Shown: in pieces, positions 19,636 through 56,829 of the stretch | Numbering within the stretch: position 1 is the stretch's first letter | Layout of the letters: the number at the start of each line of letters is the position of its first letter | From: Pseudonocardiales bacterium | Lineage (GTDB): Bacteria > Actinomycetota > Actinomycetes > Mycobacteriales > Pseudonocardiaceae | Direction of reading: 5' to 3' | Length of the DNA stretch: 64,000 nt | Assembly: GCA_019244165.1 (NCBI GenBank) | Contig: JAFATA010000012.1 | Coordinates: 22,912-86,911 of the forward strand | The notes under the pieces: generated by a model | The model's input: only the letters and a program-made list of their open reading frames with translations | Database searches by the model: none | What the model was told of the DNA's origin: nothing | Position numbers and translations under genes: made by a program

Positions 19636-21138
19636 GTGCGCCCGTATCGAGCCCGGCCGGCCGCTGGCCGGGGGTGTGCTGGGCCGCTACCACCGGTGAG
19701 GGCACTCACCGGTCATCGCCGCACCCCGCTGGTGGCCCCGCTGATGACCGCTGCCCTCGCCCTGTTGTGCCTGGCCGGACCGGCGTGGCCGGTGGCCGCC
19801 CAGCCGGGCAACCGGCCGCCCGGCGTGCCACCCCCGGTTGACCTCACTGCCCTGCCCACTCCGGCCAGCGTGAACACCCTGCCTTACCTCGTGAGCACCC
19901 CGGCTGCCCAGCAGACCGGGCCGCCCACCCGACAGGCACCCTGCCAGCAGCCAGTCACGAGCGGCGCGCAGGACCTTGTGACCGAGCCGACGGCGCAACG
20001 ACGGCTGCGGATCCGCAAAGCCCAGGAGTACGCAACCGGACGCGGCCAGCGGGTCGCCGTGATCGACAGCGGGGTGCAGCCGCATCCCAGGCTGCTCGGC
20101 AGATTGATCGATGGCGGGGACTACATCGAGAATCGCAGCGGCCTGTTCGACTGCGACGGCCACGGTACCGCGGTCGCCGGTCTGATCGCCGCAGCTCCCG
20201 ATGCGCGCACCGGATTCGTCGGGGTGGCCCCCGCCGCGGAAATCCTGGCTATTCGCCAGGGCAGCACCTTCTACTCGGTACCACTGCGCCAGCTCACCAC
20301 CGGCCAGCAGACCAGCTCCAGCGCCGGCGACACCAGGAGCATGGCGGCCGCGGTGATGCGCGCCGTACAGCTGGGCGCGACAGTGATCAATATTTCGGAA
20401 GCCGCGTGTTTCCCGGCTGAGCCCAACCAGGTCAACGCGCCGGACCTGCAGGCCGCCGTGCACTACGCGGTAGAGCACAACGTTGTCGTGGTGGTGGCCG
20501 CCGCGAACGTCAGCAATATCTGCAAACAGAACAGCCCCGGGGTAGTCACCACGATCTCCTCGCCAGGCTGGTTCGACGCTGACGTGCTCACGGTCGCCGC
20601 GACGTACGACGATGGCCAGCCAGCGGACTTCTCGATTCGTGGACCGTGGGTCGATGTGGCCGCCCCGGGCACCGGCGCGGTGTCGTTGGCGCCCGGGCGC
20701 GCAGGGCTGACCGCCGGACTCCTCGACGCCCGCAGTCAAGCCTATCCGCTCAGCGGAACCAGCTTCGCCGCTCCCTACGTGGCCGGGCTAGCGGCGCTGG
20801 TCCGGGACCGGTTCACGAACCTGAGCGCGCGTCAGGTGATCCATCGTATCGAACAGACCGCCCGGCATCCCGCGGGCCGGCGCGAGCGCAACGAGGACGT
20901 TGGCTACGGCATGATCGACCCCGTTGCCGCGCTCACCGCGGTCCTGCCCGAAGAGCGCAGCCCGCAGGCCCAGCCCGTGCTGCCGAGTAAACGGGACGGT
21001 CTGCGCAGCACGCCGCGCCCGAACAGCACGCTCGCACTGGCCGGCTCTGCCGCAGCGCTCGGGGCGCTCGGACTGGCCTTGATGGTCGTCCAGACCGTCA
21101 AACGGCAGCGGCGGTGCCCCCACCAGCCGCGGCATTGA
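19636..21138 (+). CDS. mycP: mycosin-type S8 subtilase (type VII secretion-associated serine protease) with a C-terminal membrane anchor
   Basis: The catalytic triad contexts are VAVIDSGV, DCDGHGTAVAG and LSGTSFAAPYVAG. The signal-like N-terminus is ...LMTAALALLCLAGPAWPVAA. The C-terminal TM plus basic stop-transfer is LALAGSAAALGALGLALMVVQTVKRQRR. The true start may be 19696 or 19744. Confidence 0.9.
   Translation: MRPYRARPAAGRGCAGPLPPVRALTGHRRTPLVAPLMTAALALLCLAGPAWPVAAQPGNRPPGVPPPVDLTALPTPASVNTLPYLVSTPAAQQTGPPTRQAPCQQPVTSGAQDLVTEPTAQRRLRIRKAQEYATGRGQRVAVIDSGVQPHPRLLGRLIDGGDYIENRSGLFDCDGHGTAVAGLIAAAPDARTGFVGVAPAAEILAIRQGSTFYSVPLRQLTTGQQTSSSAGDTRSMAAAVMRAVQLGATVINISEAACFPAEPNQVNAPDLQAAVHYAVEHNVVVVVAAANVSNICKQNSPGVVTTISSPGWFDADVLTVAATYDDGQPADFSIRGPWVDVAAPGTGAVSLAPGRAGLTAGLLDARSQAYPLSGTSFAAPYVAGLAALVRDRFTNLSARQVIHRIEQTARHPAGRRERNEDVGYGMIDPVAALTAVLPEERSPQAQPVLPSKRDGLRSTPRPNSTLALAGSAAALGALGLALMVVQTVKRQRRCPHQPRH
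21003..21112 (+). repeat. mycP 3'-terminal segment (intact copy) that is duplicated at 24672-24749
   Basis: See the partner repeat at 24672-24749. This copy encodes ...RSTPRPNSTLALAGSAAALGALGLALMVVQTVKRQR of MycP. Confidence 0.8.
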
Positions 21139-21435
21139 CCGGACGGAGGGCGTGGTGGCTTGGGTCCTGATCTGTGGTTGCTGCTGCGTCTGGGCTGCGC
21201 TCCCTGTCCCGAACTCGACACCAGGGTTGTTCGGGCGGTGATGGGCAGCGCCGCACACAATCGATCACCTCCTCGCCGGGCCGCATCCTGATATCCACCG
21301 TTGTCGCCGGTGCACCCCGGTGGGGATACGCATATCCATGCACTTTAACTGTGAGCTGGGATAACTACGGCTTACGACCCGTCCCGGCATGTAACGACCG
21401 GCAGTGCGTGGCAGATATAAAAGACACGGGAACGG

Positions 21436-22146
21436 ATGAGCCCGCCGCACGGGGGGAGCCACACGGAAATGATCATGATACCGACCGTTTTCCGCTTTGT
21501 CCGTTCTTGTACGTGCCGCAGTCTGCGGCGTTCGTCTTCTCTCACTCTACGTAATGACAGCAGCCGAGGGACTACCCATCCGAGAGGGACCAGTAGGCCT
21601 CTGCGTTGCAGTCGGTTTAAGCGGTTCGCTGACCGACGAGCTGGCGGCCGAGACGGCCGCAGCAGGATTCCCCGTTACTCGGAGCAACCAGAACCCACAC
21701 CCTACGTCAAAGAGCTGGTCGACGAGTACGCCAAGCAGGCTGCTGCCGAGCGCGAGGCCATGGAGAGAGATACCGCTCCCTGGCGCCAAGACTTAGCCCA
21801 ACTCATCGACAAGCTACGCCATGAAGTGCACCCCGACCCTGCAGTGCGGGCGTGGCGACAGCGAGAGGCCTCCCAAGAGAAGCGGCGGCTCGAAGCGGCG
21901 ATCGCGAGTCGACGCAGGCAGTACGTCGATCGGCGGAACCAGCTGGCCGCGCACACCTGTGTCCGCATCGAGACCTACTGGACCAGGTTGGTACAGGTTC
22001 ACCCGGACGGCGAGCTGCTGACCAACTGGATCAACGAGTGGAAACCCCCGCAGCTGGCCGGTCCCCTGGGAAAGCTGATCGAGATCGACGAACTGAACGG
22101 GAGCGACGAACCCAGCGAGCTCGACGGACCATCGGAGATCAACTGA
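21436..22146 (+). CDS. hypothetical charged/helical (coiled-coil-like) protein with an acidic tail; 5' end uncertain
   Basis: The convincing coding sequence starts at about 21680: ...PYVKELVDEYAKQAAAEREAMERD...RRLEAAIASRRRQYVDRRNQLAAH...ELNGSDEPSELDGPSEIN. Upstream of that, another frame (21554-21680: MTAAEGLPIREGPVGLCVAVGLSG...) looks more protein-like, so a frameshift or a later start is possible. The stop lies 1 nt before the next gene. Confidence 0.5.
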   Translation: MSPPHGGSHTEMIMIPTVFRFVRSCTCRSLRRSSSLTLRNDSSRGTTHPRGTSRPLRCSRFKRFADRRAGGRDGRSRIPRYSEQPEPTPYVKELVDEYAKQAAAEREAMERDTAPWRQDLAQLIDKLRHEVHPDPAVRAWRQREASQEKRRLEAAIASRRRQYVDRRNQLAAHTCVRIETYWTRLVQVHPDGELLTNWINEWKPPQLAGPLGKLIEIDELNGSDEPSELDGPSEIN

Positions 22147-22147
22147 T

Positions 22148-23371
22148 ATGCACAGTGCTCGCACGATCCACCGCTGGTGGCGCCGAGAAAGCTTCCACAT
22201 GGAGGTCACAACGGTGGCGCCACCTAGCTTGTTCACTCACTTGATGCCACAAAGGCAGATTACCCGCTTGGAGCAACGGATGCGCCGAGCCGAGGCGGAT
22301 GCCCGGGGGTGGGTGGCCGAGCTGTCTGGCGCGCTCGACGTCGGTTCCGGGGGTGTGTTCGACGGGCGACTGGACGGGTTAGAGGTCAAATGGCACGCGC
22401 AGGACGACCGCGAGCACAACGCCTACCTGTCCGAGCTGGGCAAGCGGCTCGCCAAGGCGCAAGGTGCCATCGTTTTCGCCGAGAAGACCGTCGAGCAAGC
22501 CAAGGAGGACCAGGAACGTGCCGCGCGGGACTATGAAGGGGCACGGGTACGACTCGGCGGCGAGCCACGGAGTCGCCAAGGCAAGCCGACCGGAGAAACC
22601 GAGGGGAGCGCATCTCAACTCGAACCGCTGATGTGGCTGTTCGTGCTCGGCGCGGTGGCTGGTGATATCGCAGTGTTCTACAACGTCTTGGCGAGGTTGT
22701 TCCGAAGCAATCCGGTGTTAGTTGGAGCCTGTACCGTCGGCTTCGTGGCCGCCGCGATCGGGATTTGTCATCTTATCGGGATCGGGTTGCAGGAGAGGCA
22801 GTCCGCCGTCCGGAGCCGCAGCGATGCGCTGCTCTGGGCGAAAGTGGTCGCCTGGCTCGCCCTCGGGTGTTTGGCGTTTTTCGTCCGCCTCCGTGTCGGT
22901 GTCAGTTCTTCGGGCACTCTACAAAATATGGGGAGCTCAGGTTTCGGGCTGACGCCGGCCACGAACGTTGATCGGGACCTGCTCGCCGCGCTCTTTTTCG
23001 CTGGCCTGTACCTCGTTAGTGGGCTCGTCGCCATCACGGCATCTTTCAGGATGTTCAACCCCGCTGCCCGAGCTTTTCGGCACGCGTCACGCAATGTCAA
23101 GAAGCTCAAAAAGGCCGAGCGGAACACCAAGAACGCCCAAGCGCAGCTCGTGGAGCAGATCGAGCTCAAAAGTGCGGTCGACGCCGAGGTGGCTCGTGCC
23201 ACAGAGCGGCGGAGGGGAGTTCGTTACTGCACTGAAGCCAACATTGTCAGCCTTAAATGGTTCGTACGCAATCTGATAGCCGCCGAGCTGAACGACCCCA
23301 CAGCGCATGACATTTTGATGAAGGACGCGCCCAAGATGAGAACGTACCCCGAACCCGAGCCCACGTCATGA
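22148..23371 (+). CDS. hypothetical membrane protein: charged helical N-terminus, four TM helices, charged helical C-terminus
   Basis: 407 aa. The hydrophobic helices are LMWLFVLGAVAGDIAVFYNVL, VLVGACTVGFVAAAIGICHLIGIGL, LLWAKVVAWLALGCLAFFVRL and LLAALFFAGLYLVSGLVAITASF. They are flanked by K/E/R/A-rich segments. It has an ATGA overlap with the next gene. Confidence 0.65.
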   Translation: MHSARTIHRWWRRESFHMEVTTVAPPSLFTHLMPQRQITRLEQRMRRAEADARGWVAELSGALDVGSGGVFDGRLDGLEVKWHAQDDREHNAYLSELGKRLAKAQGAIVFAEKTVEQAKEDQERAARDYEGARVRLGGEPRSRQGKPTGETEGSASQLEPLMWLFVLGAVAGDIAVFYNVLARLFRSNPVLVGACTVGFVAAAIGICHLIGIGLQERQSAVRSRSDALLWAKVVAWLALGCLAFFVRLRVGVSSSGTLQNMGSSGFGLTPATNVDRDLLAALFFAGLYLVSGLVAITASFRMFNPAARAFRHASRNVKKLKKAERNTKNAQAQLVEQIELKSAVDAEVARATERRRGVRYCTEANIVSLKWFVRNLIAAELNDPTAHDILMKDAPKMRTYPEPEPTS

Positions 23372-24606
23372 TCGGACTGAGTAGGGTTTTTGCCGCCGGC
23401 ACCGCCCCTCTCCTGGCCATCGCGCTGGTGGCGTGCAGTGGGGGCGGTAACGCCCACTCGGGAGAATTCGTGATCGGCGGGGAGTGCGCCATGCCGGCCG
23501 GGCCACTTGCCGTGGCGATATCCCGGCGGGCGAACAGCCCCGGCGACCTACCCGTTCCGGTGAGCCAGATCGTGCAGCGGTTCATCACGCGTATCCCGGC
23601 GGGGGTGACCGGACCGACCCTGAGCTTGATCAACGTCGATGGTCGCTCCCGTGTTTATCAACACGGGAACTTCTTCTCGGACTCCGGGAACGATGAGGGT
23701 CTCCAAGACGACCAACAGAAGTTCCTGGCCGGGTTCACCAGCACCGCAGCCGCGATGCGCGCCGCAGAGCCCGAGGTGGATGTCCTGGGTGCGCTGGAGG
23801 AGGCGGGAAACGCCGCGGGCGCGGGCCGACCGGCGGCCGGCACCGTCGTCCTCGTCGACTCCGGTCTGTCCACAACCGGCGCGCTGGACTTCAGCCAACC
23901 GGGCATGCTGGATGCTCCAGCCGATGACCTGATCTCCTCCCTGCGGAGAACCAAGGCATTGCCCCATCTGAGCGGGTTGACCGTGGCTCTGGTCGGAGTC
24001 GGGGAGGTTGCCCGCCCGCAGCAGAAGCTCGGCACTCGTCAGCCGGGCCTCGCCGAGCTGTGGACACAGATCGCCAAAGCCAGCGGGGCGGCCTGCGTCA
24101 CGTCGGTCGAGGTGACGCGCTCCGACGACCCGGTCGATGGCCAGGTCAAGCCGGTGAAACTCGTCCCGGTCCCCTCTCCTGTGGTGGTTCATCCTCACGG
24201 GATCGTTCTCCTTGACGCAGGCGAGGTTCGATTTGAGGAGGGGCAGGCGGCCTTCCGCGACCGGAAAGCCGCGCGCACAGCGCTGGAGCCGATCGCCGCC
24301 CCGCTCAAGAACCAACCGTCGCACCACCTGCGGCTCATTGGCACCACCGCGCGCTGGGGTTCCCGGGACTACCAACTCGACCTGGCTAGGCGGCGGGCTG
24401 AGACCGTCAAGCAGGAGCTGGTCGGGCTCGGCGCCAACCCGAACCAGATCGAGACTCGCGGCTTAGGCAGCTATTTCGCGCAGTACGTCCCGGACAATGG
24501 CCCTGGCGGCGTGCTCTTACCGGGGCCAGCGCAACAAAATCGAACGGTCCGGATCGAGTCCTGCGATCCCACCTGCCCACCCGATCCAGCGGCCCCACCG
24601 GCATGA
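23368..24606 (+). CDS. lipoprotein with an unassigned central domain and a C-terminal OmpA/MotB-type peptidoglycan-binding domain
   Basis: The signal plus lipobox is MIGLSRVFAAGTAPLLAIALVAC-SGG. The C-terminus LRLIGTTARWGSRDYQLDLARRRAETVKQELVGLGANPNQIETRGLG...NRTVRIE fits the OmpA-like pattern. Confidence 0.75.
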   Translation: MIGLSRVFAAGTAPLLAIALVACSGGGNAHSGEFVIGGECAMPAGPLAVAISRRANSPGDLPVPVSQIVQRFITRIPAGVTGPTLSLINVDGRSRVYQHGNFFSDSGNDEGLQDDQQKFLAGFTSTAAAMRAAEPEVDVLGALEEAGNAAGAGRPAAGTVVLVDSGLSTTGALDFSQPGMLDAPADDLISSLRRTKALPHLSGLTVALVGVGEVARPQQKLGTRQPGLAELWTQIAKASGAACVTSVEVTRSDDPVDGQVKPVKLVPVPSPVVVHPHGIVLLDAGEVRFEEGQAAFRDRKAARTALEPIAAPLKNQPSHHLRLIGTTARWGSRDYQLDLARRRAETVKQELVGLGANPNQIETRGLGSYFAQYVPDNGPGGVLLPGPAQQNRTVRIESCDPTCPPDPAAPPA

Positions 24607-24622
24607 CCGTCCATCCGGGGGC

Positions 24623-25921
24623 TCATGGATGTTTGTGCGCGTTCTGGCGGCGCAACGCGCGGGTTTGTTCGGCGCAGCACGCCGCCTCCGAACAACACGC
24701 TCGCGCTGGCCGGCTCTGATGGTCGTCCAGACCGTCAAACGGCAGCGGCAGCGCCCCGGTTAAGATCGATGGCGCTGGGGAGCGTCCATTGCTGGGTGAG
24801 CCGACCCAGAGCGTGTAATGCTGTGGCGTGATCGTCAGGCCGAACTGGTCAATGCCAGGGCGCCCAGCGTTATCCCAGTCAGCCAGGATCGGGTCGATCT
24901 TGGCCCACAGATGCCGGATGCCGGTTTCGTGAACCCGAGCAGGTCCGCCCGAACGCGGCTCGACGCGGACCCATGAGTTACTGGCTGGATGCCACCAGCG
25001 GTAATCCACCACCGTGCCGTCCTCGCGGTGCACAAACATCAGCTGGCTCCGCTCGGCGATCAAAGAAGCCAAGAACGAGGCAACGGTGAAATCTAAGCTC
25101 CCTGGTAGGTCAGCGTCGTACTGCCGTTCCGCGACGCCGCCGGTAACCTCGAAAACCCGCCCACTCGTGGACGTGGGTAGCTCGCCTTCGGTGTGCAGCG
25201 CCATGAATCCGGCCTGGCCGCAGAACTGACCAGATACCATGTCACCGTTGCCGCGCCGGAGAGCGACCAGGCCACGGCTGACATTGGCGACGATCAACCC
25301 GCCAGGCGCCAACTGCTGGATCCAGGCTGCCGGGATGCGGTCCACTCCGCAAGTAGCGATGATCCGGTCGAAAGGGGCGCGTTCGGCCGCGCGACGGGCA
25401 CCGTTGCCGGTCAGTACCGTCACCGGGAATCCGGCATCGTCGAGGACCTCCTTCGCTGCCTGAGTGAGACGGGGATCGACGTCGATGGTCGTGACGTTGT
25501 CCGGGCCGAGTCGATGGGCCAGCAGGGCGGCGTTGTATCCCGTTCCGGTACCAATTTCCAGTACCTTGTGTCCGTCGTGGACATCCAGCAGGCCCAGCAT
25601 GTGCGCCATGAGGGCAGGCTCGGTGCTGGACGAGATGGCCACGCCATTGTCCGCGTAACGTGTGATCAGCGCTTCGTTCCGGTAGGCCGCCGCCAACCAT
25701 CGTGGACGTTCGGCCGGATCCGAGCCGTCGTACCAGCTCGCCGCAGCCGGACCGGGCTGCCCGGGCGCGCTGATCGCGAAACGCGGCGCGAAGAGGTGCC
25801 GAGGCACGCTCTGCCAGGCACGCCGCCAAGCGGGGTCGTTCAGGAGCCCAGCAGCGGCCAGCTCATCGGCCAGTTGCTCCCGGTAGTCGGCGGCCATGTC
25901 ATCGGTGACGGTGGTATTCAC
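24623..25921 (-). CDS. PIMT-like O-methyltransferase of an ATP-grasp RiPP system (TIGR04188-like)
   Basis: The SAM motif is VLEIGTGTGYNAALLA. The N-terminus ...AADYREQLADELAAAGLLNDPAWRRAWQSVPRHLF is typical of this family. The GTG at 25921 overlaps the ATP-grasp stop (GTGA); an ATG at 25897 is also possible. The last about 45 codons read antisense through the mycP-remnant junction. Confidence 0.85.
   Translation of the reverse strand: MNTTVTDDMAADYREQLADELAAAGLLNDPAWRRAWQSVPRHLFAPRFAISAPGQPGPAAASWYDGSDPAERPRWLAAAYRNEALITRYADNGVAISSSTEPALMAHMLGLLDVHDGHKVLEIGTGTGYNAALLAHRLGPDNVTTIDVDPRLTQAAKEVLDDAGFPVTVLTGNGARRAAERAPFDRIIATCGVDRIPAAWIQQLAPGGLIVANVSRGLVALRRGNGDMVSGQFCGQAGFMALHTEGELPTSTSGRVFEVTGGVAERQYDADLPGSLDFTVASFLASLIAERSQLMFVHREDGTVVDYRWWHPASNSWVRVEPRSGGPARVHETGIRHLWAKIDPILADWDNAGRPGIDQFGLTITPQHYTLWVGSPSNGRSPAPSILTGALPLPFDGLDDHQSRPARACCSEAACCAEQTRALRRQNAHKHP
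24672..24749 (+). repeat. decayed direct duplicate of the mycP 3' end
   Basis: gcgcagcacgccgcctccgaacaacacgctcgcgctggccggctctg + atggtcgtccagaccgtcaaacggcagcggc aligns with 21003-21049 plus 21082-21112. I counted about 74/78 identical by eye. A 32-bp stretch (21050-21081) is missing, which breaks the frame. Confidence 0.8.
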
Positions 25922-26904
25922 GGAGTCCAGCCCTCCAACAGGTCGGCGATAGCATGGGCGATCGGCAGATCGGTCGCCAACTCGATCCAGCCCCATTGCC
26001 CGTTAGGGCTGACTTCGAGGAAATACCAGCATCCTTCGGGGTCAACAATAAATTCGAGTGCGCCGTACGCAAGCCCCAGGGAGGTCATGAGCTGATTCAC
26101 CCCGTCGGAAATCGGTCGCGGCACGGTCGCCGGCTGGTAGGTGAGGCTGCCATAGTCCGACCGCCAATCGACACGAGTCTTGTCTGAAGACGCGTCGATC
26201 CGGGCCGCAAATTGCTGTTGGCCGACGACAATCAGCCGCACCTCGAATTTCTTGGGCACCCGAGACTGAAATAAATGAGCAGTGCGGGCTACGCCGTCGG
26301 TGATCTCCTCGGCGGTAACCGGACTTGTGTACAGGGCAACGGCTTTTCTCTCCGCTCCGTCCGGCGAGCCTCGGAGAGGCTTGTAGATAGCACCGTCCTT
26401 TTGGGCGGTCACGAAGGCCCGAGCCGCCTTGGGATCGTTGGTGATGAACGTGTCCGGGATAGCGAGACCGCACGCTACGGCGGTGGCTAACTGGAGCGGC
26501 TTGCTTTCGGCAATGGCATTGCAGTGCGGGTGGTTCACCCACCGACACCGCAACGCACTAAGAACGCCACCAAAACCAGCGAGGGCCTCCCGCTCCGTCC
26601 ATGCACGGTCACTGGTCGGCATCGCTGGGTGCAGGACAAACCGGGTAGGCCGCCGGTACCATACCGACCGTATATCAGCCAGACATACAGTGTGATGATC
26701 GGTGGACAAAAGGCCGTGCCAGCCGTTCCGCCCTCCTCCGATCCGAGCCTGCAGCACTAGTGTTTCCGGAAACTCGGCTACATCTAGACGGACCACCGGA
26801 ACGCGCCGCGAACTTAGTTCGCAGATGACTAAATCGGCAGTGGGATCAAAACACTGGGTCAGCACCAGCACAGGTGACTTAGTCACGTGGTCAGTCTGTT
26901 CCAT
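25918..26904 (-). CDS. ATP-grasp ribosomal peptide maturase (SAV_5884/TIGR04187-like)
   Basis: It contains ...PVLVLTQCFDPTADLVICELSSRRVPVVRLD...IRSVWYRRPT...VNHPHCNAIAESKPLQLATAVACGLAIPDT...GALEFIVDPEGCWYFLEVSPNGQWGW.... It is coupled to the methyltransferase downstream and the small precursor upstream. Confidence 0.85.
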   Translation of the reverse strand: MEQTDHVTKSPVLVLTQCFDPTADLVICELSSRRVPVVRLDVAEFPETLVLQARIGGGRNGWHGLLSTDHHTVCLADIRSVWYRRPTRFVLHPAMPTSDRAWTEREALAGFGGVLSALRCRWVNHPHCNAIAESKPLQLATAVACGLAIPDTFITNDPKAARAFVTAQKDGAIYKPLRGSPDGAERKAVALYTSPVTAEEITDGVARTAHLFQSRVPKKFEVRLIVVGQQQFAARIDASSDKTRVDWRSDYGSLTYQPATVPRPISDGVNQLMTSLGLAYGALEFIVDPEGCWYFLEVSPNGQWGWIELATDLPIAHAIADLLEGWTP

Positions 26905-27091
26905 CGACCACCGAATCGGGCCAGGACTGCATGTCCATAGTCGTCGTAATGGTACAGTACAGTGTGCTTTTCATCGACGGCTCGTCGATGAATGGGGTTC
27001 CCCCGGGCATCACTGTTATCTGGCGCACCGGATCGTAGCTGGCCCCACCCGGGGCGATCGCCTGCACTTGAGGCACCGAGACTCGGGTCAA
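26891..27091 (-). CDS. putative graspetide precursor peptide (TIGR04186-like)
   Basis: 66-aa ORF with a TTG start, immediately upstream of the ATP-grasp gene. The leader contains ...ASYDPVRQITV.... The C-terminal core is Thr/Ser- and Asp-rich: ...STLYCTITTTMDMQSWPDSVVDGTD. An AT-rich promoter-like region lies upstream (27092-27235). Confidence 0.6.
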   Translation of the reverse strand: MTRVSVPQVQAIAPGGASYDPVRQITVMPGGTPFIDEPSMKSTLYCTITTTMDMQSWPDSVVDGTD

Positions 27092-27235
27092 TCCGAACGG
27101 GACACTGTAAGGGGTACGGAGGTCCTGGTGCAGGGGCTACCGTAGGGATACATGATTTCTATGCGTTTCTGGAATATACATGTTCCGACTATTCATGCAG
27201 GGAATATTCGTTGGTCGACGTTCGACATGTTCCCG

Positions 27236-28745: not shown

Positions 28746-28773
28746 AAGCTGGAGTGCCCACCGTGAGGGGTGC

Positions 28774-29574: not shown

Positions 29575-29627
29575 GAGCCCGCCCTCCCCAGCGGGTAAGG
29601 CGGGCTCCTGCGGCGTGGTGCTCGGAG

Positions 29628-47662: not shown

Positions 47663-47665
47663 GCC

Positions 47666-48607: not shown

Positions 48608-48608
48608 T
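48546..48608 (+). repeat. pssA 3'-terminal 63 bp (intact copy) duplicated at 49411-49473
   Basis: ccaacggtcaggtgccccccgagcaccgttcccgctgggtcggtctgcgccgccgcccttaat. Confidence 0.85.
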
Positions 48609-48672
48609 CAGGTGGACGGTGCACAAGCATCCACGAGATGTGGTGGTGTGGTGCCCAGCCCTGACCAGTTGG

Positions 48673-49050
48673 CTACACGCAGACCACCGACGCGTCGACC
48701 GCAAGTGCGTCGAGGAGACGTCGCAGGTCTTCGGGATCGCTGGTCAGCACTCGATCGCCCGCCCGGGCCAGCAACGCGACATGCGCGTCGACGACATCGC
48801 AGCTATCGGTGGCGCCGAGCAGCAGGCCCAGGCGTTTCCCGGTGTCCAGATCCAGTGGTGGAGCCGCCACCCCAGCCAGGGTTCGGGCCAAGTGCGCCTG
48901 ACGTGCGCGGTGGCGCCACACCTGCGCCACCGCGGCAGGACTGGTGCGAACCGCGATGCGCTCTTGCTGCGCGACCCGTAGCAACGCACCCACCCGCCGG
49001 TTGCGATGGTCGATCGCCAGCAAGGCGCCCGCATCGAGTACCAAGCTCAC
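48673..49050 (-). CDS. vapC: PIN-domain toxin
   Basis: MSLVLDAGALLAIDHRNRR...VVDAHVALLARAGDRVLTSDPEDL... has the PIN acidic residues in their usual contexts. It overlaps the upstream antitoxin gene by 4 bp. Confidence 0.85.
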   Translation of the reverse strand: MSLVLDAGALLAIDHRNRRVGALLRVAQQERIAVRTSPAAVAQVWRHRARQAHLARTLAGVAAPPLDLDTGKRLGLLLGATDSCDVVDAHVALLARAGDRVLTSDPEDLRRLLDALAVDASVVCV

Positions 49051-49292
49051 GCGGCGTGTCCGCGCGATCCACGGGCGATGCCCAAAGTGGCGGCTGCGGC
49101 GTCGAGTTCCTCGTCACCGAACGGCCCGTCCTCGGCCTCCCAAACGTCGAGAGCCGCGCCGAGCAGATCGTTGCGGAGCCGGTCCGCCGCAGCTTGGGCC
49201 AGCCAACCCGAGACGCTCATGCCGGCCCGCTCGGCCGCATCCCGCACGGCTGCACCGAGATCGGGTTCCATCGTCACGGAAAAGCGGTCCAC
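49047..49292 (-). CDS. vapB: ribbon-helix-helix (CopG-type) antitoxin
   Basis: The GTG at 49292 gives VDRFSVTMEPDLGAAVRDAAERAGMSVSGWLAQAAADRL.... Other possible starts are 49298 and 49271. The track ORF extends to 49436, into the repeat. Confidence 0.7.
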   Translation of the reverse strand: MDRFSVTMEPDLGAAVRDAAERAGMSVSGWLAQAAADRLRNDLLGAALDVWEAEDGPFGDEELDAAAATLGIARGSRGHAA

Positions 49293-49333
49293 CTGCACAC
49301 ATACGATGCTATCACACACGATCGTATGTGCAG
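49293..49333 (-). promoter_or_regulatory. imperfect palindrome directly upstream of vapB (candidate operator)
   Basis: ctgcacacatacgat ... atcgtatgtgcag. The arms are complementary except for one extra AC. Confidence 0.35.
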
Positions 49334-49410
49334 CCAACTCGACACTGAGGCTCTCGCCGATGATGGATAGGGGCTTCGGTGAGGTTGGTGTTGCGGGCGT
49401 GGAGATGGCC

Positions 49411-49473
49411 CCAACGGCCAGGTGCCCCCAGAGCACCGTTCCCGCTAGGTCGGTCTGCGCCGCCGCCTCTAAT
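49411..49473 (+). repeat. decayed direct duplicate of the pssA 3' end
   Basis: ccaacggccaggtgcccccagagcaccgttcccgctaggtcggtctgcgccgccgcctctaat. I counted about 58/63 identical to 48546-48608 by eye. It contains a premature TAG in the pssA reading frame. Confidence 0.85.
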
Positions 49474-49478
49474 TCTGA

Positions 49479-51851
49479 TCACGGGCTCGGGGGGTAGGTC
49501 GCGACCGAGGCATCGGGATTGGCGCCGGAACCGGACGGGTACTGGGCGCACTGGCGCACATAGGGCGTCCCCGCGCCGACGTAGCGGTCCCACTCCTGTT
49601 GCGACAAGTTGCGCCCGACCAGCTCACACGCCCGACGTACCCACGTCGCAGGCGTTGCCCACAGCCGCACGGTTTTATCCTCACTGGCAGCGGCCAGCAG
49701 CGTGCCATCCGGACTGAACGCCACCCCGAAGACCCCGTTGGTATGGCCGATAAGCGGCTGACCGAAGGACGGATGGATGGCGACATTCGAAAACAGCACT
49801 GTGTCATCGAGACTGGTGGTGGCCAGCAATCTGCCGTCGGGACTGAATGCCATCCCCAGGATCGCGTCGGTGTGGCAGCGGAAGGGCTGGCCAACGGGCT
49901 GATGGCTGGCCACATCCCAAAACCGCACCATATCATCGAGACTGGCGCTGGCCAGCAACCTCCCATCCGGACTAAACGCCACACCATAAACCGCGTCGGT
50001 GTGGCCGATCAGCGGTTGACCGAGGGACTGGCGGCTGGCCACATCCCACAACCGCACCGTGTTATCGGCACTGGCGCTGGCCAACAATTTGCCATCCGGA
50101 CTGAACGCCACCCCACCAACCGCGTCGGTGTGGCCGCGGAGAGGCTGGCCAACGGGCTGACGGCTGGCCACATCCCACAACCGCACCGTACGATCATCAC
50201 TAGCGCTGGCCAACAGCTTGCCATCCGGACTGAACGCCACCCCCAGGACCACGTCGGTGTGGCCGCGGAGAGGCTGGCCAACGGGCCGGCGGCTGGCCAC
50301 ATCCCACAACCGCACCGTACGATCAGCGCTAGCCGTAGCCAACAATTTGCCATCCGGACTGAACGCCACGCCCCACACCCTGTCAGTGTGGCCGGTCAGC
50401 GGCTGACCAACGGGCTGACGACTGGCCACATCCCACAACCGCACCGTGTGATCCTCACCGGCACTGGCCAGCAACTTGCCATCCCGACTAAATGCCACCC
50501 CAGGGACCGGGTTGATGTGGCCGACGAGCGGCCGGCCAACGGGCTGACGACTGGCCACATCCCACAACCGCACCGTGTGATCCTCACCGGCACTGGCCAG
50601 CAACTTGCCATCCGGGCTGAACGCCACACCATAAACCGCGTCGGTGTGGCCGACGAGCGGCTGACCGAGCGGCTGACGACTGGCCACATCCCACAACCGC
50701 ACCGTACGATCAGCGCTAGCGGTAGCCAGCAGCCGGCCATCCGGACTAAACGCCACCCCAAAGACCGCGCCGATGTGGCCAATCAGCGGCTGACCGAGCG
50801 GCTGACGACTAGCCACATCCCACAACCGCACCGTACGATCATCACTGGCGCTGGCCAGCAGTTTGCCGTCGGGACTGAACGCCACGGCCCGGACCGCATT
50901 GGTGTGGCCGAGGAGTTGGTGGGAGGGGTGCAGCGGCCGGGATAGTGCCGCTTGCAGGCTGGCCCAGGCTTCCGGGGTGGCAGCGGTGTGCAGGCTTGCC
51001 AGGCTGAGCAATTGCCCAGCGTCAGATCCCGCCATCGTCGTGGCTTGGGCGGCCAGGGCGCGCGAGGTGGCCAGCCGGGTTTCCTGTTGTGCCTGGTTGG
51101 TTTGGGAGGCCGAGTACACGCCGAGGATGCTGGCGACCGCGGCGAGCGCGAGGGCGACGGCGAGCAGGGCGGCCAGTAAGCGGACGCGGCGGCGGTCGCG
51201 GGTCAGGCGTTGGTGTTGGGTGCGATCGCTGAGCCGGATGAACTCAGCCAGCTCGCTGCGCAGCTCGCCGGGCCGCTTGGCCAGCCAGCTGCGGGCCTGT
51301 TCCAGGGCGCTGCCACGCAGCAGCAGCTCCTGATCCCGGTCGGCTTGGCCTGCGGTAGAGGCCACCCAGTGGTCGTGGGCGGTCTCCAAGTCCCCCCGCC
51401 AGGCCAGGAACTCGTAGTCCTCGCTCAGCCACTGGCGAAGCAGCCCCCACTCGCGGATCAACGTTTCGTGGACCAGCTCCACGACCGGCTCACCGCTGAT
51501 CGCATCCCGGCTGGTGACCAGCAGCCTCCGGTCGGCCAACGCGGTGATCACCGCGTCCACCTCGTCCCCGCCCTGCGATGTTCCCGCGGTCTGGACACGG
51601 AGTTGGTCACGGGTGCGCCGTTGCCGGGTCGGGGGGATGTTGGCCGCCTCATCACCCGGCCTGACTAGCGAGGTGACGATCGGGCGCACCAGCGGCTGCT
51701 GAGCTGCGGGCAGTGCCTGGTAGGCCTGGTCACACCAGCGGGCCAGCCCGCCGATGACCCCGCCGATCTGCTCATACGCGCGGTGCGTGAGTCGGCCCTC
51801 CACCCGGCGGTGCCACAACTCCGTCAACGCGAACTCCAGCAGCGGCAGCAC
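49479..51851 (-). CDS. C-terminal part of a STAND protein: helical/winged-helix region, one TM helix, ten WD40 repeats (probably one gene with 51824..53230, split by a frameshift)
   Basis: It starts (V)[15 protein letters not shown]..., the typical continuation of NACHT-like NTPases. The hydrophobic segment is [23 protein letters not shown]. It is followed by 10 units of ...GH(x5)[25 protein letters not shown].... Confidence 0.85.
49653..50918 (-). repeat. tandem array of ten 129-bp (43-codon) WD40 units with high DNA identity
   Basis: Repeated strings such as ggccacatcccacaaccgcaccgt and ccatccggactgaacgccac recur at 129-bp spacing. Confidence 0.85.
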
Positions 51852-53230
51852 CCCGTAATCGCCGCACCCCCAACGGGCGCGGCGAGGGCCGGTGCCGCCG
51901 CGACCGCGTCGCTGGCGATGCGCTCGACCAGCCCAGGCTCCAGCGTCAAGCCAGCGACGGCGGCGGGTTGGTCGATGATGGCCGCCAGTTCCTCAGCGTC
52001 CAAGACCGCGGGGATGTTGACCAGCGCCTGCTCGACCAGCCGCATCAACCCGGGAGCGGCCGCGGCCAGCCGACCGTAGAAATCGTCGCGCAGCCCCACG
52101 ATCACGGTGACGGCCGGCTCCTGCTCGGTCAGCACCGTCAGCTGCGCCAGGAACTCCGTCCGCACCGCCGGTGGGGTGGCGACGAGCAGTTCTTCACACT
52201 GGTCCACCACCAGCAACAGCCGTTCGTGCTCCGGGTGCTGACCAAGCCAGCGGCGGGCCGCCGCGCCCAGCCCGGTGGCGCTCCCGGCCAAGCCGGCCTG
52301 GTCCAGCGCAGCGAACGGGTCGGCTCCCGGTCGGATGCTCAGCCAACCCCAGCCCTCGCTGCCTAGCAGCGCGCCACTAGCCAGGGCCGGCAGCACCCCG
52401 GCGTGCAGCAGCGAGGACTTACCCGCCCCGGAGGGGCCCAACAACGCCAGGAACCGATGCTCGCGACGCAGGCTGGCCAGCACGGTGCGCACCGCACGAT
52501 CACGTCCATAAAACCAGGCGGCGTCCGCGGTGCTGAAGGGTTCCAGCCCCCGGTAAGGGCGGACCTGCGAGACGGCCAGTTCCGCGCAGATGTCCCGCAG
52601 CGTCTCAGTCGGCGTGACGTAGGCACTGGATCGGCCCCGACCGTGCGGATCGGGACTGGAGATCGAGTTCACCATGCCGATCACCAACCCGGTGCGCTCG
52701 TCCAGCACCGGGCCGCCGCTGAAGCCCTCGGTCACCTCCGTGCAGCCGGTCAGCTGCAGCAGCGGGGTGCCGCCATCGCCGTCGATCTGATCTCCAGCCA
52801 CGCCGTAGCCGTAATGCCCCGCACTCGGCGCGTTGACCGGAAAGCCAAACGTCTTGACCTGGTGGCCGCCCACCCCCGGTGAGCCACCCAAGGCCAGTGG
52901 TTGGGCCTGGGCGGGGAGTGGCTGCGCCACGCGGAGGAATGCGACATCAGCGCCATCCGGGCCGCGCCAGTACCGTGGCTCGACCTGACCGGTCCGCCTG
53001 GCACCGTCCAGGTGGGCGAACACCACCGTGATCGGATCATCCGGCGGCTCATCGTGATCGTGATCGGTGAGGATGTGGGCGCAGGTGACCAGCAGCTGTG
53101 GGCCAACCACGAAGCCGGTCCCGGCGGGGCGGCCCGCGGCGTCGAGGATCTGCACGACACTGCGGGTCAGCTCGACCGGCCAGCCGGCTGCGGGGCCCGC
53201 CTGAAGCGGCGGTTCACCCAGCCGCGTCAT
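51824..53230 (-). CDS. N-terminal part of a STAND protein: trypsin-like serine protease domain plus P-loop NTPase (Walker A/B)
   Basis: The protease triad contexts are [17 protein letters not shown] and [11 protein letters not shown]. Walker A is [13 protein letters not shown] and Walker B is [11 protein letters not shown]. The ORF ends in the out-of-frame tail ...[12 protein letters not shown]. Confidence 0.85.
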
Positions 53231-53540
53231 CGCCTTGTTCCCAGCGCAGCGTGACCTTCAGGTGGCACTCGCCCGCAGTTTTGACAATGGCCGCCCCCGC
53301 TTCGGCGGTGAGCAGCAGCCCGAACTCCACCGTGATCTCGTTGGATCGGGCCTGGCGCAGCTTCGTCAGGATGGACTGCGCCGCCGGGGCCACCGAGTCC
53401 AAGGCAGCTTCCAAGGAATGCGTCGCCGTGCCGATGACCCCTCCGGCCCGGCGCGCCTTGACCACACCGGCCTGGGCATGGTCCATCTCAACCACGATCT
53501 CACCGCCGTCATCCAGCGGCACCGCCACTAACTCCGCCAT
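53214..53540 (-). CDS. small Trypco1-like (trypsin-co-occurring domain, CU044_2847-like) protein
   Basis: ATG at 53540: MAELVAVPLDDGGEIVVEMD...VKARRAGGVIG...SLEAALDSVAPAAQSILTKL...EITVEFGLLLTAEAGAAIVKTAGECHLKVTLRW. It overlaps the protease-STAND start by 17 nt. The family assignment is from memory. Confidence 0.6.
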   Translation of the reverse strand: MAELVAVPLDDGGEIVVEMDHAQAGVVKARRAGGVIGTATHSLEAALDSVAPAAQSILTKLRQARSNEITVEFGLLLTAEAGAAIVKTAGECHLKVTLRWEQGDDAAG

Positions 53541-53635
53541 CGCACCGCCCACCCTCAGCAGCCGCCCAGACACAAGGTGCCCTGTCCTAACAGAGTTGAG
53601 GCAAACCCACCGTGATACCCCTCCGGTTACCCTGG

Positions 53636-53684
53636 CCAGGAAAGATCGAGATCGACGGGCTGGTCGTAATCAAGACCGGGCACG
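53636..53684 (-). repeat. decayed duplicate of the fabV-like gene's 3' end
   Basis: ccaggaaagatcgagatcgacgggctggtcgtaatcaagaccgggcacg aligns with 55645-55693, ccatgcaaggtccggatcgacgggctggtcgtaatcaacaccgggcacg. It encodes ...VPGLDYDQPVDLDLSWPG* against the genuine ...VPGVDYDQPVDPDLAWPFVG*. Confidence 0.75.
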
Positions 53685-53922
53685 CAGTCGGCGCCCCCGT
53701 TCGGCCAGCATGAGGTTTCTCCTTGACGCCAGCCTCTCCCGCGGGTCGCCGCTCGACTTTGTGACGGCGGCTCCGAGTCCTTGGTCAGGATCGTGGAACC
53801 CGTATCGCCAGCACTTAGTGGTCGGCGCTGCAAGTCCGTCGGGGGTCGCTATCGGGATTGTCGGATACCCGGTTGAGTGGTAAGACACGATCCACTCCGA
53901 GGCCACTGATGGGGGTGATCGT

Positions 53923-55200
53923 TTAGCAGCGGAGGGGGTTGTGAAGTGGTCTGCGGTCGGGGTCAATGATCACTGGGGGGATGAATTCGACGTAGCCCGG
54001 GCGGATCAGGATCTCCCACCCGGTCTGATGCACGTGGCGGTGATGGGTCTCGCATAACAGGACGCAGTTGTCGATGCTGGTCGCACCGCCGTCGGCCCAG
54101 TGCTGCGCGTGGTAGCTCTGGCACAATCCCGGCGGCCGGTCGCACCCAGGGAAAGCGCATCCCCCGTCCCGTGCCACGAGTGCGCGGCGCAGGGACAGCG
54201 GGATGGTCCGCATCGCCCGCCCGACGTCCAGCGGTTCCGATACCCCGCCCAACACGACGGGAATGATTTTCGCGTCACAAGCCCAGCGTCGGGCCTCAGC
54301 GGCGCTCAGATGCGTCCCGTAGTCCAGGGTCGCGGCCCCGAGGCCGGTGCGCAGAGCCTCCCAGGGGAGGGTGAGGGTCAGGTGTGGGGGTTCCCCAGCG
54401 GTGGCGGGGCAGTCTTGCGCAGCGCGGGCCAGCCCGCAAACTTCCGTCAGCGCATCAGCGTTGCGCTGCGGGGCGGTACGCGGATCAAGGATCCCCTCGC
54501 TGGCCGGGCAGGGTGCGGCGAATTGTTCAATCAGGGAACGAAACGCGGCACCGTGTTCAGGTTCGAGGAATCCTTCCAGCCCCAGCCGCCCATCACGGCG
54601 TTCCCGCCACCGCAGCTCCCCCGCCGCTGCGGCGGGCTCGGGCTCCTCCCGGGGCTTCGGACCGTCCTGATCGAAGTGCGCGAGGATGTGCCGCCCGATC
54701 TTGTGCAGCGACGCCGGGTTAAACGAGCGGGCATAGCGGGCCAGATCAGCCTCGGCAGCCTCGCGCTGCTCCACACTCACCGAGGCAGGGATCGCGCTCA
54801 TCGTCTCGGCGATCACCCGAACCTGCCCCACCCCGATCTCCCCTGCCGCCAACGCCGCAGCAGTCTTCGGCAGCGCTGGCGCGAGCACCTCACCACTCAA
54901 GGTGCGCCGCGCGGTCAGTTGCGCGGCGTGCATGACCCGGGTACCGGCCTCGGTGGCCGAGAGCTGCAGCATCCCCGCCAGCAGCCGTTTCGTACTGCCG
55001 AACCCGCTGGTGGCCGCGATATTGCGGAACTCCAGCTCCGCAACGGCATCCAGCATCACCGCATGCAGCATCCGCGAAACTGCTTCGACGTCCCGAATCT
55101 GATCCGGCAATCCGGCGTCACCACACTCGACGATCGACTGCCGCCACTGCTCCAGGCAGACGACCATCGCCTGCCTGGGATCCAGCCGCGTCTCGATCAC
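53923..55200 (-). CDS. HNH endonuclease with an N-terminal DUF222 domain (REP13E12-type element protein)
   Basis: 425 aa. The C-terminal HNH motif is CAFPGCDRPPGLCQSYHAQHWADGGATSIDNCVLLCETHHRHVHQTGW. Confidence 0.9.
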   Translation of the reverse strand: MIETRLDPRQAMVVCLEQWRQSIVECGDAGLPDQIRDVEAVSRMLHAVMLDAVAELEFRNIAATSGFGSTKRLLAGMLQLSATEAGTRVMHAAQLTARRTLSGEVLAPALPKTAAALAAGEIGVGQVRVIAETMSAIPASVSVEQREAAEADLARYARSFNPASLHKIGRHILAHFDQDGPKPREEPEPAAAAGELRWRERRDGRLGLEGFLEPEHGAAFRSLIEQFAAPCPASEGILDPRTAPQRNADALTEVCGLARAAQDCPATAGEPPHLTLTLPWEALRTGLGAATLDYGTHLSAAEARRWACDAKIIPVVLGGVSEPLDVGRAMRTIPLSLRRALVARDGGCAFPGCDRPPGLCQSYHAQHWADGGATSIDNCVLLCETHHRHVHQTGWEILIRPGYVEFIPPVIIDPDRRPLHNPLRC

Positions 55201-55629
55201 GCCACCATCATCACACCCACCTCTGACAATTTCGGGTGTTCCCGAGACCCGAAAACAAGATCTTTAGCCGTCGCCCCCCTCAGCGGCGTCGGGATGGATC
55301 GCGGCCACCACCGCCCTGATCATGGGCATACCTCGACAACAGCACAACGCTGACGGTGCCGTCCCCACTCAGCCAGGCGCCCGCCGCTGTGGAAGAGCTG
55401 GTGGCCACGTTGCAGGCGGCGGCGTCGATCGACAACCTGTGGCCGGTCTCGCAGCTGCTGGTTAAGTGGCGGCACACGGCCGAGATCTACGCTGATCCTC
55501 GACTGTACACCGCTGCGACCCGTGTTCTCGGCGAGGACGGCGGTCCGGTCCGGCGCCCGGAAGCGCCGGAAAGCGTGGCGTGAGCCCCAAACGTCGAACT
55601 CGGCGCACGGAGAGCACACACGATCACTG

Positions 55630-56829
55630 CTATCCCACGAAAGGCCATGCAAGGTCCGGATCGACGGGCTGGTCGTAATCAACACCGGGCACGGCGAAGC
55701 CGTACAGCCGGCGCACTTCGTCGCGGAACCAGTCGATGTCGGCGATGGTGGTGATGTTTTCCGGCGTGGCCGCCTGCCACCGGGCAGCCAGCTCCCTCTG
55801 GACGTCACGGGCAAGTTCCCACTGGTCGAGACGGATTTGACCGTGATCGTCGAGTTCCAGTCGCTTGGTGCCGACAAGTTGATCCCACAGCTCCGTGAAC
55901 TGGCCGATGGGAGAATCCATGGCTTCCCCCATGACGCCGCGTAACAGCCCAATATACAGGGCTATGCCGGGGATCGCGGTAGCGGACTGGGTGACGGCGG
56001 CGCCGTTGACCGAGATCAGCGCACGCCCGCCGGGCCCGCTGGCGAGTCGTGCGTTCAGAGTTGTCGCGGTTTTTTCCAGATGTTCTTTCGCAGCGCCAAT
56101 AGTGCCACGCCGGTAGATCGCCGAGGTCACGTCGGATCCGATATAGGACAGGGCGACTGTCTGGAAACCGGGCCGGATGAGGCCGCGCTCCTCCAGAGCA
56201 TCGACCCAGCGAGCCCAGTCCTCCCCGCCCATGACCTTGACGGTCCCCGTGACGTCGTCGTCCTCGGCAGCGGGGACCTCAATTTCCCGCAACAGCGGGG
56301 CGCCGTCGTCGTCAAAGATGAGAGTCTTTGTGCGGTACGCCTGCCCGATCGGCTTGATGACGGATCGGTAGGTGTCTCCGCTCACCGGATCGGCGCGGCG
56401 GGGGGCCGCGACGCTGTAGATCAGGTAGTCAACCGGGCCAAACCGCTGGGCAAGGAGGTCCAGCACCTCGGTCTTGGTCGGGTCGGCAAAACAGTCGGCG
56501 TTGACAAACTCCATGTGCGTACCGACTTTAGCCGCCATACGAGAGGTGGCGATCGTCCGGTACCAGCCAGCGGTGGCCGTTCGTCGAGCGGACCACGATT
56601 TTTCGTAGCACACGCCCACGCCGCAGATACCGTAGCGGGCGAGTCCCACGATCGTTGCGGCCAATCCGTACCCGGCGCTGGAACCGATGATCAGAGCGAC
56701 GGGGTGGTGGTGGGCATCGAGCGGGCGGACCTGCGACCACATCTCCGCGACATTCTCGGCGCATCCGGTGGGGTGGGAGTCGAGCAAGAGAAAGCCCCGG
56801 CCAGTGGGGCTGATAATGCGTGTGGTCAT
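55630..56829 (-). CDS. fabV: trans-2-enoyl-CoA/ACP reductase, FabV/TER family
   Basis: ATG at 56829: MTTRIISPTGRGFLLLDSHPTGCAENV...ALIIGSSAGYGLA...YSVAAPRR...ALSYIG.... The track start is 56898. Confidence 0.85.
   Translation of the reverse strand: MTTRIISPTGRGFLLLDSHPTGCAENVAEMWSQVRPLDAHHHPVALIIGSSAGYGLAATIVGLARYGICGVGVCYEKSWSARRTATAGWYRTIATSRMAAKVGTHMEFVNADCFADPTKTEVLDLLAQRFGPVDYLIYSVAAPRRADPVSGDTYRSVIKPIGQAYRTKTLIFDDDGAPLLREIEVPAAEDDDVTGTVKVMGGEDWARWVDALEERGLIRPGFQTVALSYIGSDVTSAIYRRGTIGAAKEHLEKTATTLNARLASGPGGRALISVNGAAVTQSATAIPGIALYIGLLRGVMGEAMDSPIGQFTELWDQLVGTKRLELDDHGQIRLDQWELARDVQRELAARWQAATPENITTIADIDWFRDEVRRLYGFAVPGVDYDQPVDPDLAWPFVG

Follow-up and report, generated by a model that had tools for sequence, protein, structure and literature searches.

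Duplicated 3' ends of mycP, pssA and fabV as candidate displacement scars of integrase-free insertion in a Pseudonocardiaceae lineage

How do the 3' ends of three core genes come to lie twice within one genome region, each pair separated by accessory DNA? The question is raised by a stretch of 64,000 nt (hereafter, the window) on contig JAFATA010000012.1 of the Pseudonocardiales assembly GCA_019244165.1, which comes from an uncultured Pseudonocardiaceae lineage of soil actinomycetes. In this window, mycP, pssA and fabV each run into cargo genes that are followed by a second, decayed copy of the gene's own end. A preliminary description had ascribed all three cases to one insertion mechanism that targets gene 3' ends and regenerates them. 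Its candidates were capture through a phage-type attachment site (attP), as at tRNA genes, or homology-facilitated insertion, possibly involving an HNH-DUF222 element, with repeated cassette exchange at hot spots as the alternative. We propose, with a probability of roughly 55%, that the repeats are displacement scars: accessory DNA would have been inserted without an integrase, anchored by homology, at two hot spots, each lying between a pair of convergent core genes (mycP/truA or pssA/fabV).

All three repeat pairs were found, within 2-8 nt of the positions first given for them. In a self-BLAST of the window they were the only dispersed direct repeats above background, the tandem repeats of a WD40 gene excepted. 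They scored 66 to 92 bits, and the best repeat in 30 Markov-1 simulated windows scored 40 bits. Chance or low-complexity matches, the outcome that the preliminary description had itself said would undo its case, are therefore ruled out. The order that it described, running from host gene to intact 3' end (R1, the proximal copy) to cargo to decayed direct copy (R2, the distal copy), is real and occurs three times. The mycP pair (21000-21120 versus 24669-24757) is 93% identical over shared columns, with a 32-nt internal deletion in the second copy; the pssA pair (48546-48608 versus 49411-49473) is identical at 58 of 63 positions, with a tryptophan codon changed to TAG in the second copy; and the fabV pair (55643-55693 versus 53634-53684) is identical at 45 of 51. 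The deletion and the TAG codon bear out the earlier view that the distal copies are decayed. Every proximal copy is continuous with its intact gene and runs on into newer cargo, and every distal copy is 5'-truncated, retains an in-frame stop codon of its own and is joined to older cargo. At the mycP/truA locus (site 1) the features are as follows.

19636-21138, plus strand: mycP (mycosin), the host gene of site 1; Peptidase_S8, 1938 homologues, named mycosin by database sources
21000-21120, plus strand: R1 of mycP, the proximal copy; the repeat ends 16 nt before the stop, and the last 5 codons (HQPRH-stop) are insert-derived
21121-24668, plus strand: younger cargo of site 1, a three-gene operon (genes 21436-22146, 22148-23371 and 23368-24606); GC content 0.63-0.64; third gene with a C-terminal OmpA-like domain
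24669-24763, plus strand: R2 of mycP, the distal 5'-truncated copy; 32-nt deletion; own stop (GGT TAA, 24758-24763); reads ...KRQRQRPG-stop, as orthologues do
24623-28770, minus strand: older cargo of site 1; a graspetide-type pair for a ribosomally synthesized and post-translationally modified peptide (RiPP), open reading frames (ORFs) without assigned family and a helix-turn-helix (HTH) gene (28080-28745); absent from L081
24623-25996, minus strand: graspetide-type methyltransferase (TIGR04188)
25918-26904, minus strand: graspetide-type ATP-grasp (TIGR04187)
28774-29598, minus strand: truA, the core gene convergent with mycP in the empty site (mycP-truA neighbourhood of L081)

The pssA/fabV locus holds the other two pairs, one at each end (sites 2 and 3).

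47666-48607, plus strand: pssA, the host gene of site 2; CDP-OH_P_transf; downstream of psd
48546-48608, plus strand: R1 of pssA, the proximal copy; ends 1 nt past the stop codon
48673-49271, minus strand: younger cargo of site 2, a two-gene toxin-antitoxin-like pair; 125-aa PIN-like protein (48673-49050) and 74-aa protein (49047-49271); palindromic operator
49411-49473, plus strand: R2 of pssA, the distal copy; in-frame TAG; 5 nt from the stop of the convergent WD40 gene
49479-53573, minus strand: older cargo between pssA R2 and fabV R2; a conflict-type module of Trypco1 (53214-53573), trypsin-nSTAND1 (51824-53230) and nSTAND1-WD40 (49479-51851) genes
53627-53684, minus strand: R2 of fabV (repeat 53634-53684); own stop 53627-53629; reads ...PVDLDLSWPG-stop
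53685-55629, minus strand: younger cargo of site 3, a mosaic of a short fragment shared with L004, the HNH-DUF222 unit and the 3' part of a 162-aa gene
53694-53771: the short fragment common to L004, part of the younger cargo of site 3
53814-55385, minus strand: HNH-DUF222 unit (gene 53923-55200; PF02720 and PF01844)
55389-55593, plus strand: 3' portion (~200 nt) of a conserved 162-aa gene; ends ...PEAPESVA-stop, its stop overlapping GTG; no Pfam match
55630-56898, minus strand: fabV, the host gene of site 3; NCBIfam NF010177 (FabV), 438 bits against a curated cut-off of 403; R1 at 55643-55693; tail ...PVDPDLAWPFVG-stop

Database matches upheld the earlier labels mycP, pssA, fabV and HNH-DUF222. 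The label vapBC for the pair beside pssA found no Pfam or NCBIfam match and stays unconfirmed, the one point in its favour being a 35%-identical homologue in L083 with a faint PIN match.

What these sites looked like before the insertions can be read from relatives, for which we compared 80 loci around pssA (L001-L080) and contigs around mycP homologues (L081-L083). The preliminary description had proposed a search of related genomes for empty sites, and an empty site was found for each locus. In L081, the closest mycP relative (92-94% nucleotide identity), truA is convergent with mycP (truA identity, 94%) across a spacer of 34 nt by sequence, or 33 nt between called genes. This arrangement joins window position 21110 to 28771, so that the window carries an extra 21111-28770, or 7.66 kb. 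In L007, pssA and fabV are convergent neighbours ~50 nt apart, and the window carries an extra 48639-55642, or 7.0 kb. It follows from the empty sites that the distal copies lie in the middle of the variable regions, each abutting older cargo. The inserts first described are thus present, but each makes up no more than the part nearest the gene of a larger insertion: it is the youngest layer of a variable region of ~7-7.7 kb and was inserted between the core gene and older cargo. The resulting order is mycP R1, three-gene operon, R2, graspetide-type cluster with HTH gene and truA at site 1, and pssA R1, toxin-antitoxin-like pair, pssA R2, Trypco1/trypsin-STAND/WD40 module, fabV R2, HNH mosaic and fabV with its R1 at sites 2 and 3. 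All cargo has a GC content of 0.59-0.68, below the 0.70-0.73 of the core genes.

Other strains hold both finished structures and parts of them. The near-identical strain L149 (96-97% identity) has the mycP structure as in the window, and L154 (99% identity) has the structure from pssA to fabV. In L021 and L011, pssA, a short intergenic repeat described below and the same toxin-antitoxin-like pair are contiguous without a distal copy, as a donor-type allele would be; in L005 and L006 the pair lies ~3 kb away and has no pssA-like flank. Downstream of pssA in L003 and L004 is a 5' remnant of the STAND module, a resident-type remnant. This picture in relatives is close to the repeated cassette exchange at hot spots that had been offered as the alternative.

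Four things are observed directly: the repeat anatomy, the empty sites, the fact that younger cargo is layered on older, and the lack of an integrase. We suggest the following course of events to account for them. DNA from a related strain would bring in the terminal 50-250 nt of the core gene and, behind them, whatever followed the gene in the donor, and would recombine with the resident gene through this short gene-end homology. A circularised fragment could integrate by a single (Campbell-type) crossover. Alternatively, a linear fragment could enter through one homologous and one illegitimate junction, by homology-facilitated illegitimate recombination (HFIR), with the illegitimate joint upstream of the end of the homology. 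The product would be the same by both routes: an intact gene now running into new cargo, and the resident 3' end, with its own stop and its old neighbour, shunted downstream as a 5'-truncated fragment that then decays. Among the candidate mechanisms of the preliminary description, homology-facilitated insertion fits best. Its notion that gene 3' ends are targeted is not supported: each of the three sites is a gap that separates two convergent core genes. The 3' ends would appear as targets because they are the only homologous anchors at such sites and because only gene-preserving events persist.

The repeat boundaries allow a closer view of the gene ends. In each pair, the gene-distal boundary is the point where orthologous alleles cease to align; it lies at or near the stop codon, and C-terminal tails are variable among relatives. 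The mycP repeat ends 16 nt and the fabV repeat 10 nt before the stop, and therefore both proteins gained new C-terminal tails. Regeneration of the host gene end had been suggested for all three; it was exact only at pssA. The fabV tails differ accordingly, reading ...WPFVG-stop in R1, ...WPG-stop in R2 and ...WPTQA-stop in L007. For mycP, R1 ends in ...KRQRRCPHQPRH-stop (...CPHQPRH-stop), a tail absent from the 120 homologue C-termini inspected. Orthologues end in ...KRQR(Q)RPG-stop (...KRQRQRPG-stop in P0024, P0039 and P0047; KRQRPG-stop in P0001). It is R2, and not R1, that has the orthologue-type C-terminus, which points to R2 as the resident end. The bases that follow the R2 stop (GATCGAT) agree with L083. 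R1 and R2 are 93% identical to each other; R2 is slightly nearer to the orthologues (84-87% identity) than R1 (80-81%). Two of the changes in the window's R1 are recent, since L149 has an R1 whose right block is identical to the R2 of the window. The cargo ends and the other junctions look arbitrary: an HNH unit has been cut, a methyltransferase has lost its native stop, and an rhs fragment marks the junction in L063.

This last locus came from a search for further cases, in which 1.69 Mb of fetched loci were scanned for short dispersed direct repeats. In L063 (Nocardia sp. NRRL S-836, a cultured, distant relative), a second copy of the final 243 nt of pssA lies 1.05 kb downstream and is 80% identical to the first (10727-12254). 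The stop codon is the exact end of both copies, and indels are present in the distal one. Between them lie an orphan C-terminal fragment of a polymorphic toxin and a small ORF. These are followed by an immunity-like gene and a gene for a 2217-aa Rhs-type toxin, and a 5'-truncated rhs fragment abuts the distal pssA copy. The case is independent of the window's, and displacement of a gene end and displacement of a toxin tip occur together at this one locus. The anatomy expected of displacement, with an intact proximal copy and a truncated distal copy that keeps its own stop and its own downstream neighbour, is thus present at all three sites of the window and in L063. In favour of it, too, is that the repeats differ in length from site to site (51, 63 and 121 nt in the window and 243 nt in L063).

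Similar scars are known from elsewhere. During conjugation in E. coli, truncated plasmids that had re-circularised gave rise by single crossover to 56 of 60 integrants, in which duplications of the homologous (lacZ) gene end of 109-950 bp flanked the insert without any integrase (Amarir-Bouhram et al. 2011, PMC3240628). HFIR is attributed there to de Vries and Wackernagel 2002 and Prudhomme et al. 2002, as cited in PMC3240628. The loci described here likewise have an integrase-free insert flanked by a duplicated homologous gene end, but in those systems the constructs were made in the laboratory, the hosts were E. coli and naturally competent species, and the homology was longer and identical. 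The accepted model for C-terminal displacement at rhs loci follows the same logic (Jackson et al. 2009, PMC2935791), as does that for type VI secretion system (T6SS) effector-immunity arrays (Kirchberger et al. 2017, PMC5361080). In both cases either the single crossover of a circular intermediate or HFIR has been proposed as the route (PMC2935791, PMC5361080). Displacement at rhs, contact-dependent inhibition (CDI) and T6SS loci shares with our sites the intact gene, the new cargo, the 5'-truncated 3' fragment with its old partner, the serial layers and the lack of an integrase. It differs in that the anchors here are housekeeping or core genes (pssA, fabV and mycP) and not polymorphic toxins, in that the duplicated segment is only 51-243 nt, and in that the gene product is essentially unchanged, with no functional toxin tip exchanged. 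The window therefore offers a new example of a known scar type, at housekeeping genes of an actinomycete.

Could site-specific integration have left the same scars? If integrative elements had carried an attP containing the gene's 3' end, as at tRNA genes, and had later lost their integrase, the topology would be identical, with attL regenerating the gene and attR holding the displaced end. Integrative elements are common in actinomycetes, and islands at the 3' ends of tRNA, tmRNA or protein genes also have 3'-end direct repeats that bracket accessory DNA, an intact gene and the newer insert beside it, so that the repeat pairs at gene ends and the serial insertion seen here resemble tandem accretion at tRNA genes. 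We nevertheless regard decayed site-specific elements as unlikely, although they rank first among the alternatives. Unlike such islands, no insert, those of L149 and L154 included, contains an integrase, excisionase or transposase. Searched with Pfam, the main ORFs within 21121-28770 and 48609-55642 showed no recombinase domain, which agrees with the preliminary description, and tblastn with an integrase of the lineage found no homologue at these loci. Integrase families were also not among the 25 commonest of 88 Pfam families in 131 ORFs within 8 kb downstream of pssA in 27 relatives, a result that leaves the rarer families aside. The window contains no tRNA and no match to an Rfam family, and thus no tRNA, tmRNA or known RNA at the sites. 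No third repeat copy was found at the far ends of the islands; the repeats bracket the proximal layer only. Their boundaries track the end of allelic homology and share no core, and the cargo of site 3 is a mosaic of truncated pieces with arbitrary-looking ends. The toxin-antitoxin-like pair stands beside pssA without a distal copy in L021 and L011, and in L005 and L006 it stands elsewhere without pssA-like sequence. Phages, plasmids and viral contigs gave no match to the cargos or the repeats, in a search whose sensitivity is limited because the lineage is uncultured. Target-site duplication by a transposon was rejected as well: the duplications of 51, 63 and 121 nt differ in length, there is no transposase, and the cargo ends lack terminal repeats.

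The preliminary description's further suggestion that an HNH-DUF222 element was involved runs into the anatomy of that element. Its gene sits in a discrete, multicopy unit of ~1.6 kb with imperfect terminal inverted repeats of ~60-80 nt (CTTAGTGGTCGGCGCTGCAAGTCCGTCGGGGGTCTC...). Intact units occur at unrelated loci in L144-L148 (L144 4771-6385; L146 4744-6343; L148 909-2355), for example beside parB; the conserved unit there is 1.57 kb, and the gene has 386 close homologues. Being multicopy, dispersed and bounded by inverted repeats, the unit is probably mobile, and its endonuclease might have cut near gene ends, with repair then copying in cargo and gene end. However, two of the three cargos lack it, and the intact units of L144-L148 are not accompanied by duplicated gene ends. 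In the window's copy, one inverted repeat is missing its outer ~45 nt, and there the unit is fused to the 5'-truncated 162-aa gene; this copy lies between two other truncated fragments and not beside the fabV repeats. Such homing is thus largely refuted by anatomy, and we consider it very improbable. No obvious target-site duplication was seen for the unit. Within the window, only 53814-55385 qualifies as a DUF222-HNH repeat element of the kind represented by REP13E12 in Mycobacterium tuberculosis (Gordon et al. 1999, as cited in PMC10589994). The likeness lies in the DUF222 and HNH architecture of the gene and its multicopy state in its own lineage; the unit here is a passenger and not the cause of the duplications.

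Two further explanations turn on where the copies came from. Insertion within the genome could leave a long target duplication through template switching (fork stalling or microhomology-mediated break-induced replication) or repair of a staggered break, in which re-entry 50-120 nt behind the exit point would make copies identical at birth. The mycP copies are indeed closer to each other (93%) than either is to any orthologue (87% at most), the right block of R1 in L149 is identical to R2, the left junction lies inside the mycP ORF and makes a novel tail absent from 120 homologues, and the three-gene operon is present at unrelated loci elsewhere. Yet the functional R1 is more derived than the non-coding R2, whereas an exact duplication should leave the reverse pattern; a pssA allele with the same cargo is contiguous in other lineages; and no source copy of any cargo lies within the window. 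We rank this explanation second among the alternatives and hold it to be improbable. The distal copies, rather than the proximal ones, might instead be foreign, if fragments of another allele (pssA 3' end/STAND block/fabV 3' end, and mycP 3' end/RiPP cluster) had been end-joined into a resident variable region. Block 49411-53684, bracketed by truncated ends of both flanking genes, looks like a random fragment running from pssA through STAND to fabV; the continuity of the flanks with L007 puts the proximal copies in their native context; and Ku/LigD end joining is present in actinomycetes. This proposal would require two illegitimate joints per event and would leave the altered R1 tails unexplained. 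In addition, the site 1 fragment has no piece of truA at its other end, and it is the R2 of mycP that has the orthologue-type C-terminus. It is doubtful, and we place it third.

Several observations weigh against homology-anchored insertion, the reading that we prefer. To reveal a donor tract in the host genes, a relative would have to be more than 95% identical and yet sufficiently different in structure, and there is none. Sliding-window identity (mycP against L081; psd-pssA against 29 relatives) revealed no switch of nearest neighbour, but with relatives only 80-92% identical this is uninformative. Donor alleles for site 1 (mycP with HQPRH-stop and the operon) and site 3 were not found outside the strains with the full structure, L149 and L154; for mycP and fabV, neither donor-type nor resident-type alleles were found in relatives. 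The homology of 51-121 nt is short for RecA-type recombination, and microhomology at the presumed illegitimate junctions amounts to 0-3 nt at most, which is uninformative. Older cargo layers lack duplicated ends, so not every insertion here leaves a scar. The identity of the L149 R1 block to the window's R2 is also compatible with a duplication that was originally exact and intragenomic.

If our reading is true, "C-terminal displacement" would be a general by-product of homology-anchored gene flow that extends beyond polymorphic toxin loci, and scars of this type should not be taken to indicate integrases or attachment sites. The displaced gene-end fragments serve as stratigraphic markers that put the insertions in order, with the younger layer beside the gene, and flag hot spots that could be mined for new defence or conflict systems. 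Accessory modules (the toxin-antitoxin-like pair, STAND/WD40, the rare three-gene operon and the graspetide cluster) stack in layers beside conserved genes without a dedicated mobility gene.

The same hot spots are also marked by a dispersed intergenic repeat that resembles repetitive extragenic palindromic (REP) elements. It has a motif of 22-25 nt (GTGCACAAGCATCCATGAGACC) in a repeat unit of ~42 nt, which consists of AAGGTGCACAAGCATCCATGAGACC and a GC-rich, hairpin-capable spacer of ~17 nt. The window has only two copies, which lie within 11 and 28 nt of repeat/cargo junctions.

48619-48640, plus strand: REP-like copy, 11 nt after the pssA stop; position conserved in L001, L002, L006, L007 and L016
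24619-24640, minus strand: degenerate REP-like copy (19/22), between the end of the three-gene operon and mycP R2

A metagenome scan for the motif returned 117 instances in 64 clusters on 60 contigs (L084-L143), mostly tandem doublets with a period of ~42 nt and up to four in a row. The clusters were intergenic in 60 of 64 cases, with 3' ends of neighbouring genes about twice as frequent as 5' ends. The motif had been considered as a gene C-terminus (KVHKHP-stop), a candidate rejected on the strength of this intergenic distribution and its location outside ORFs in L008. It has no match to an Rfam family and was absent from viral contigs in one scan. A copy lies within the empty pssA/fabV site of L007, another at 18239-18302 of L083, and in L001 doublets (4140-4202 and 6154-6218) directly flank a nitrile-hydratase cargo that also holds the 3' remnant of a glycosyltransferase gene. 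The repeat, specific to this lineage of Pseudonocardiaceae, behaves in the manner of a REP-type element and marks the hot spots described above; a role in recombination is possible. One could go further and propose that the lineage has a dedicated, integrase-independent process that inserts cassettes at convergent gene ends, with the 42-nt repeat as its site, a REP-associated enzyme at work and the gene-end duplications as by-products. This is compatible with the data because the window's copies lie near junctions, a copy lies in the L007 empty site and doublets flank the L001 cargo; we consider it highly doubtful, below the three alternatives ranked above though ahead of homing.

The cargos and their surroundings yielded several observations of their own. 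The proteins of the three-gene operon are ~225, ~407 and ~410 aa long, the last with a C-terminal OmpA-like peptidoglycan-binding domain. The operon is very rare (5.8 billion clusters contain 13 homologues of its middle protein), and it is absent from the ESX loci of relatives. It occurs in unrelated contexts in L150-L153 (L150 7334-10456), where homology stops at the operon borders, and in L150 and L151 it adjoins an EACC1-caspase-WD40 conflict system. PADLOC returned no match for it, and it may be an uncharacterised defence or conflict module. Upstream, an ESX-4-like locus has decayed in the lineage (19423-19650 versus L082 6270-7736): eccD is down to ~145 nt and eccB and eccE are absent, which makes mycP the sole remnant in the window and L081 alike. 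In L082 and L083 the order is eccD-mycP-eccB fragment-eccE-...-truA-rpoA. The methyltransferase ORF (24623-25996) exceeds the TIGR04188 model by 61 aa. The extension crosses R2 in the antisense direction and ends within the REP-like motif, the native stop having been lost at the older junction of mycP and the RiPP cluster.

At the pssA/fabV locus, the nSTAND1 NTPase domain is split exactly over two ORFs (model positions 1-225 in 51824-53230 and 226-374 in 49479-51851), and it is split likewise in L154; the Trypco1 gene lies upstream. The WD40 region is a 129-nt tandem array of nine in-register copies, and its product is 51 aa shorter in L154 (739 versus 790 aa). The 162-aa gene truncated in the window is intact in L004 (20190-20680), L006 and L015, where it adjoins toxin-antitoxin-like genes or pssA. 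Part of the short fragment shared with L004 (53710-53771) had been considered as a remnant of a DUF5615 toxin, which Pfam did not confirm. A further small variable spot lies between moeA and psd (45890-46590); most relatives lack it, and within it is a PCMT-like fragment (faintly matched in the L154 annotation; 73% identity to L001 11359-11625). Finally, a long, near-perfect inverted repeat (ccaagatcactgtttgggtgccaaaaccgaca...tgtcggttttggcacccaaacagtgatcttcc; L004 11000-11110) lies downstream of pssA in both L003 and L004 and resembles a miniature inverted-repeat transposable element or a terminator.

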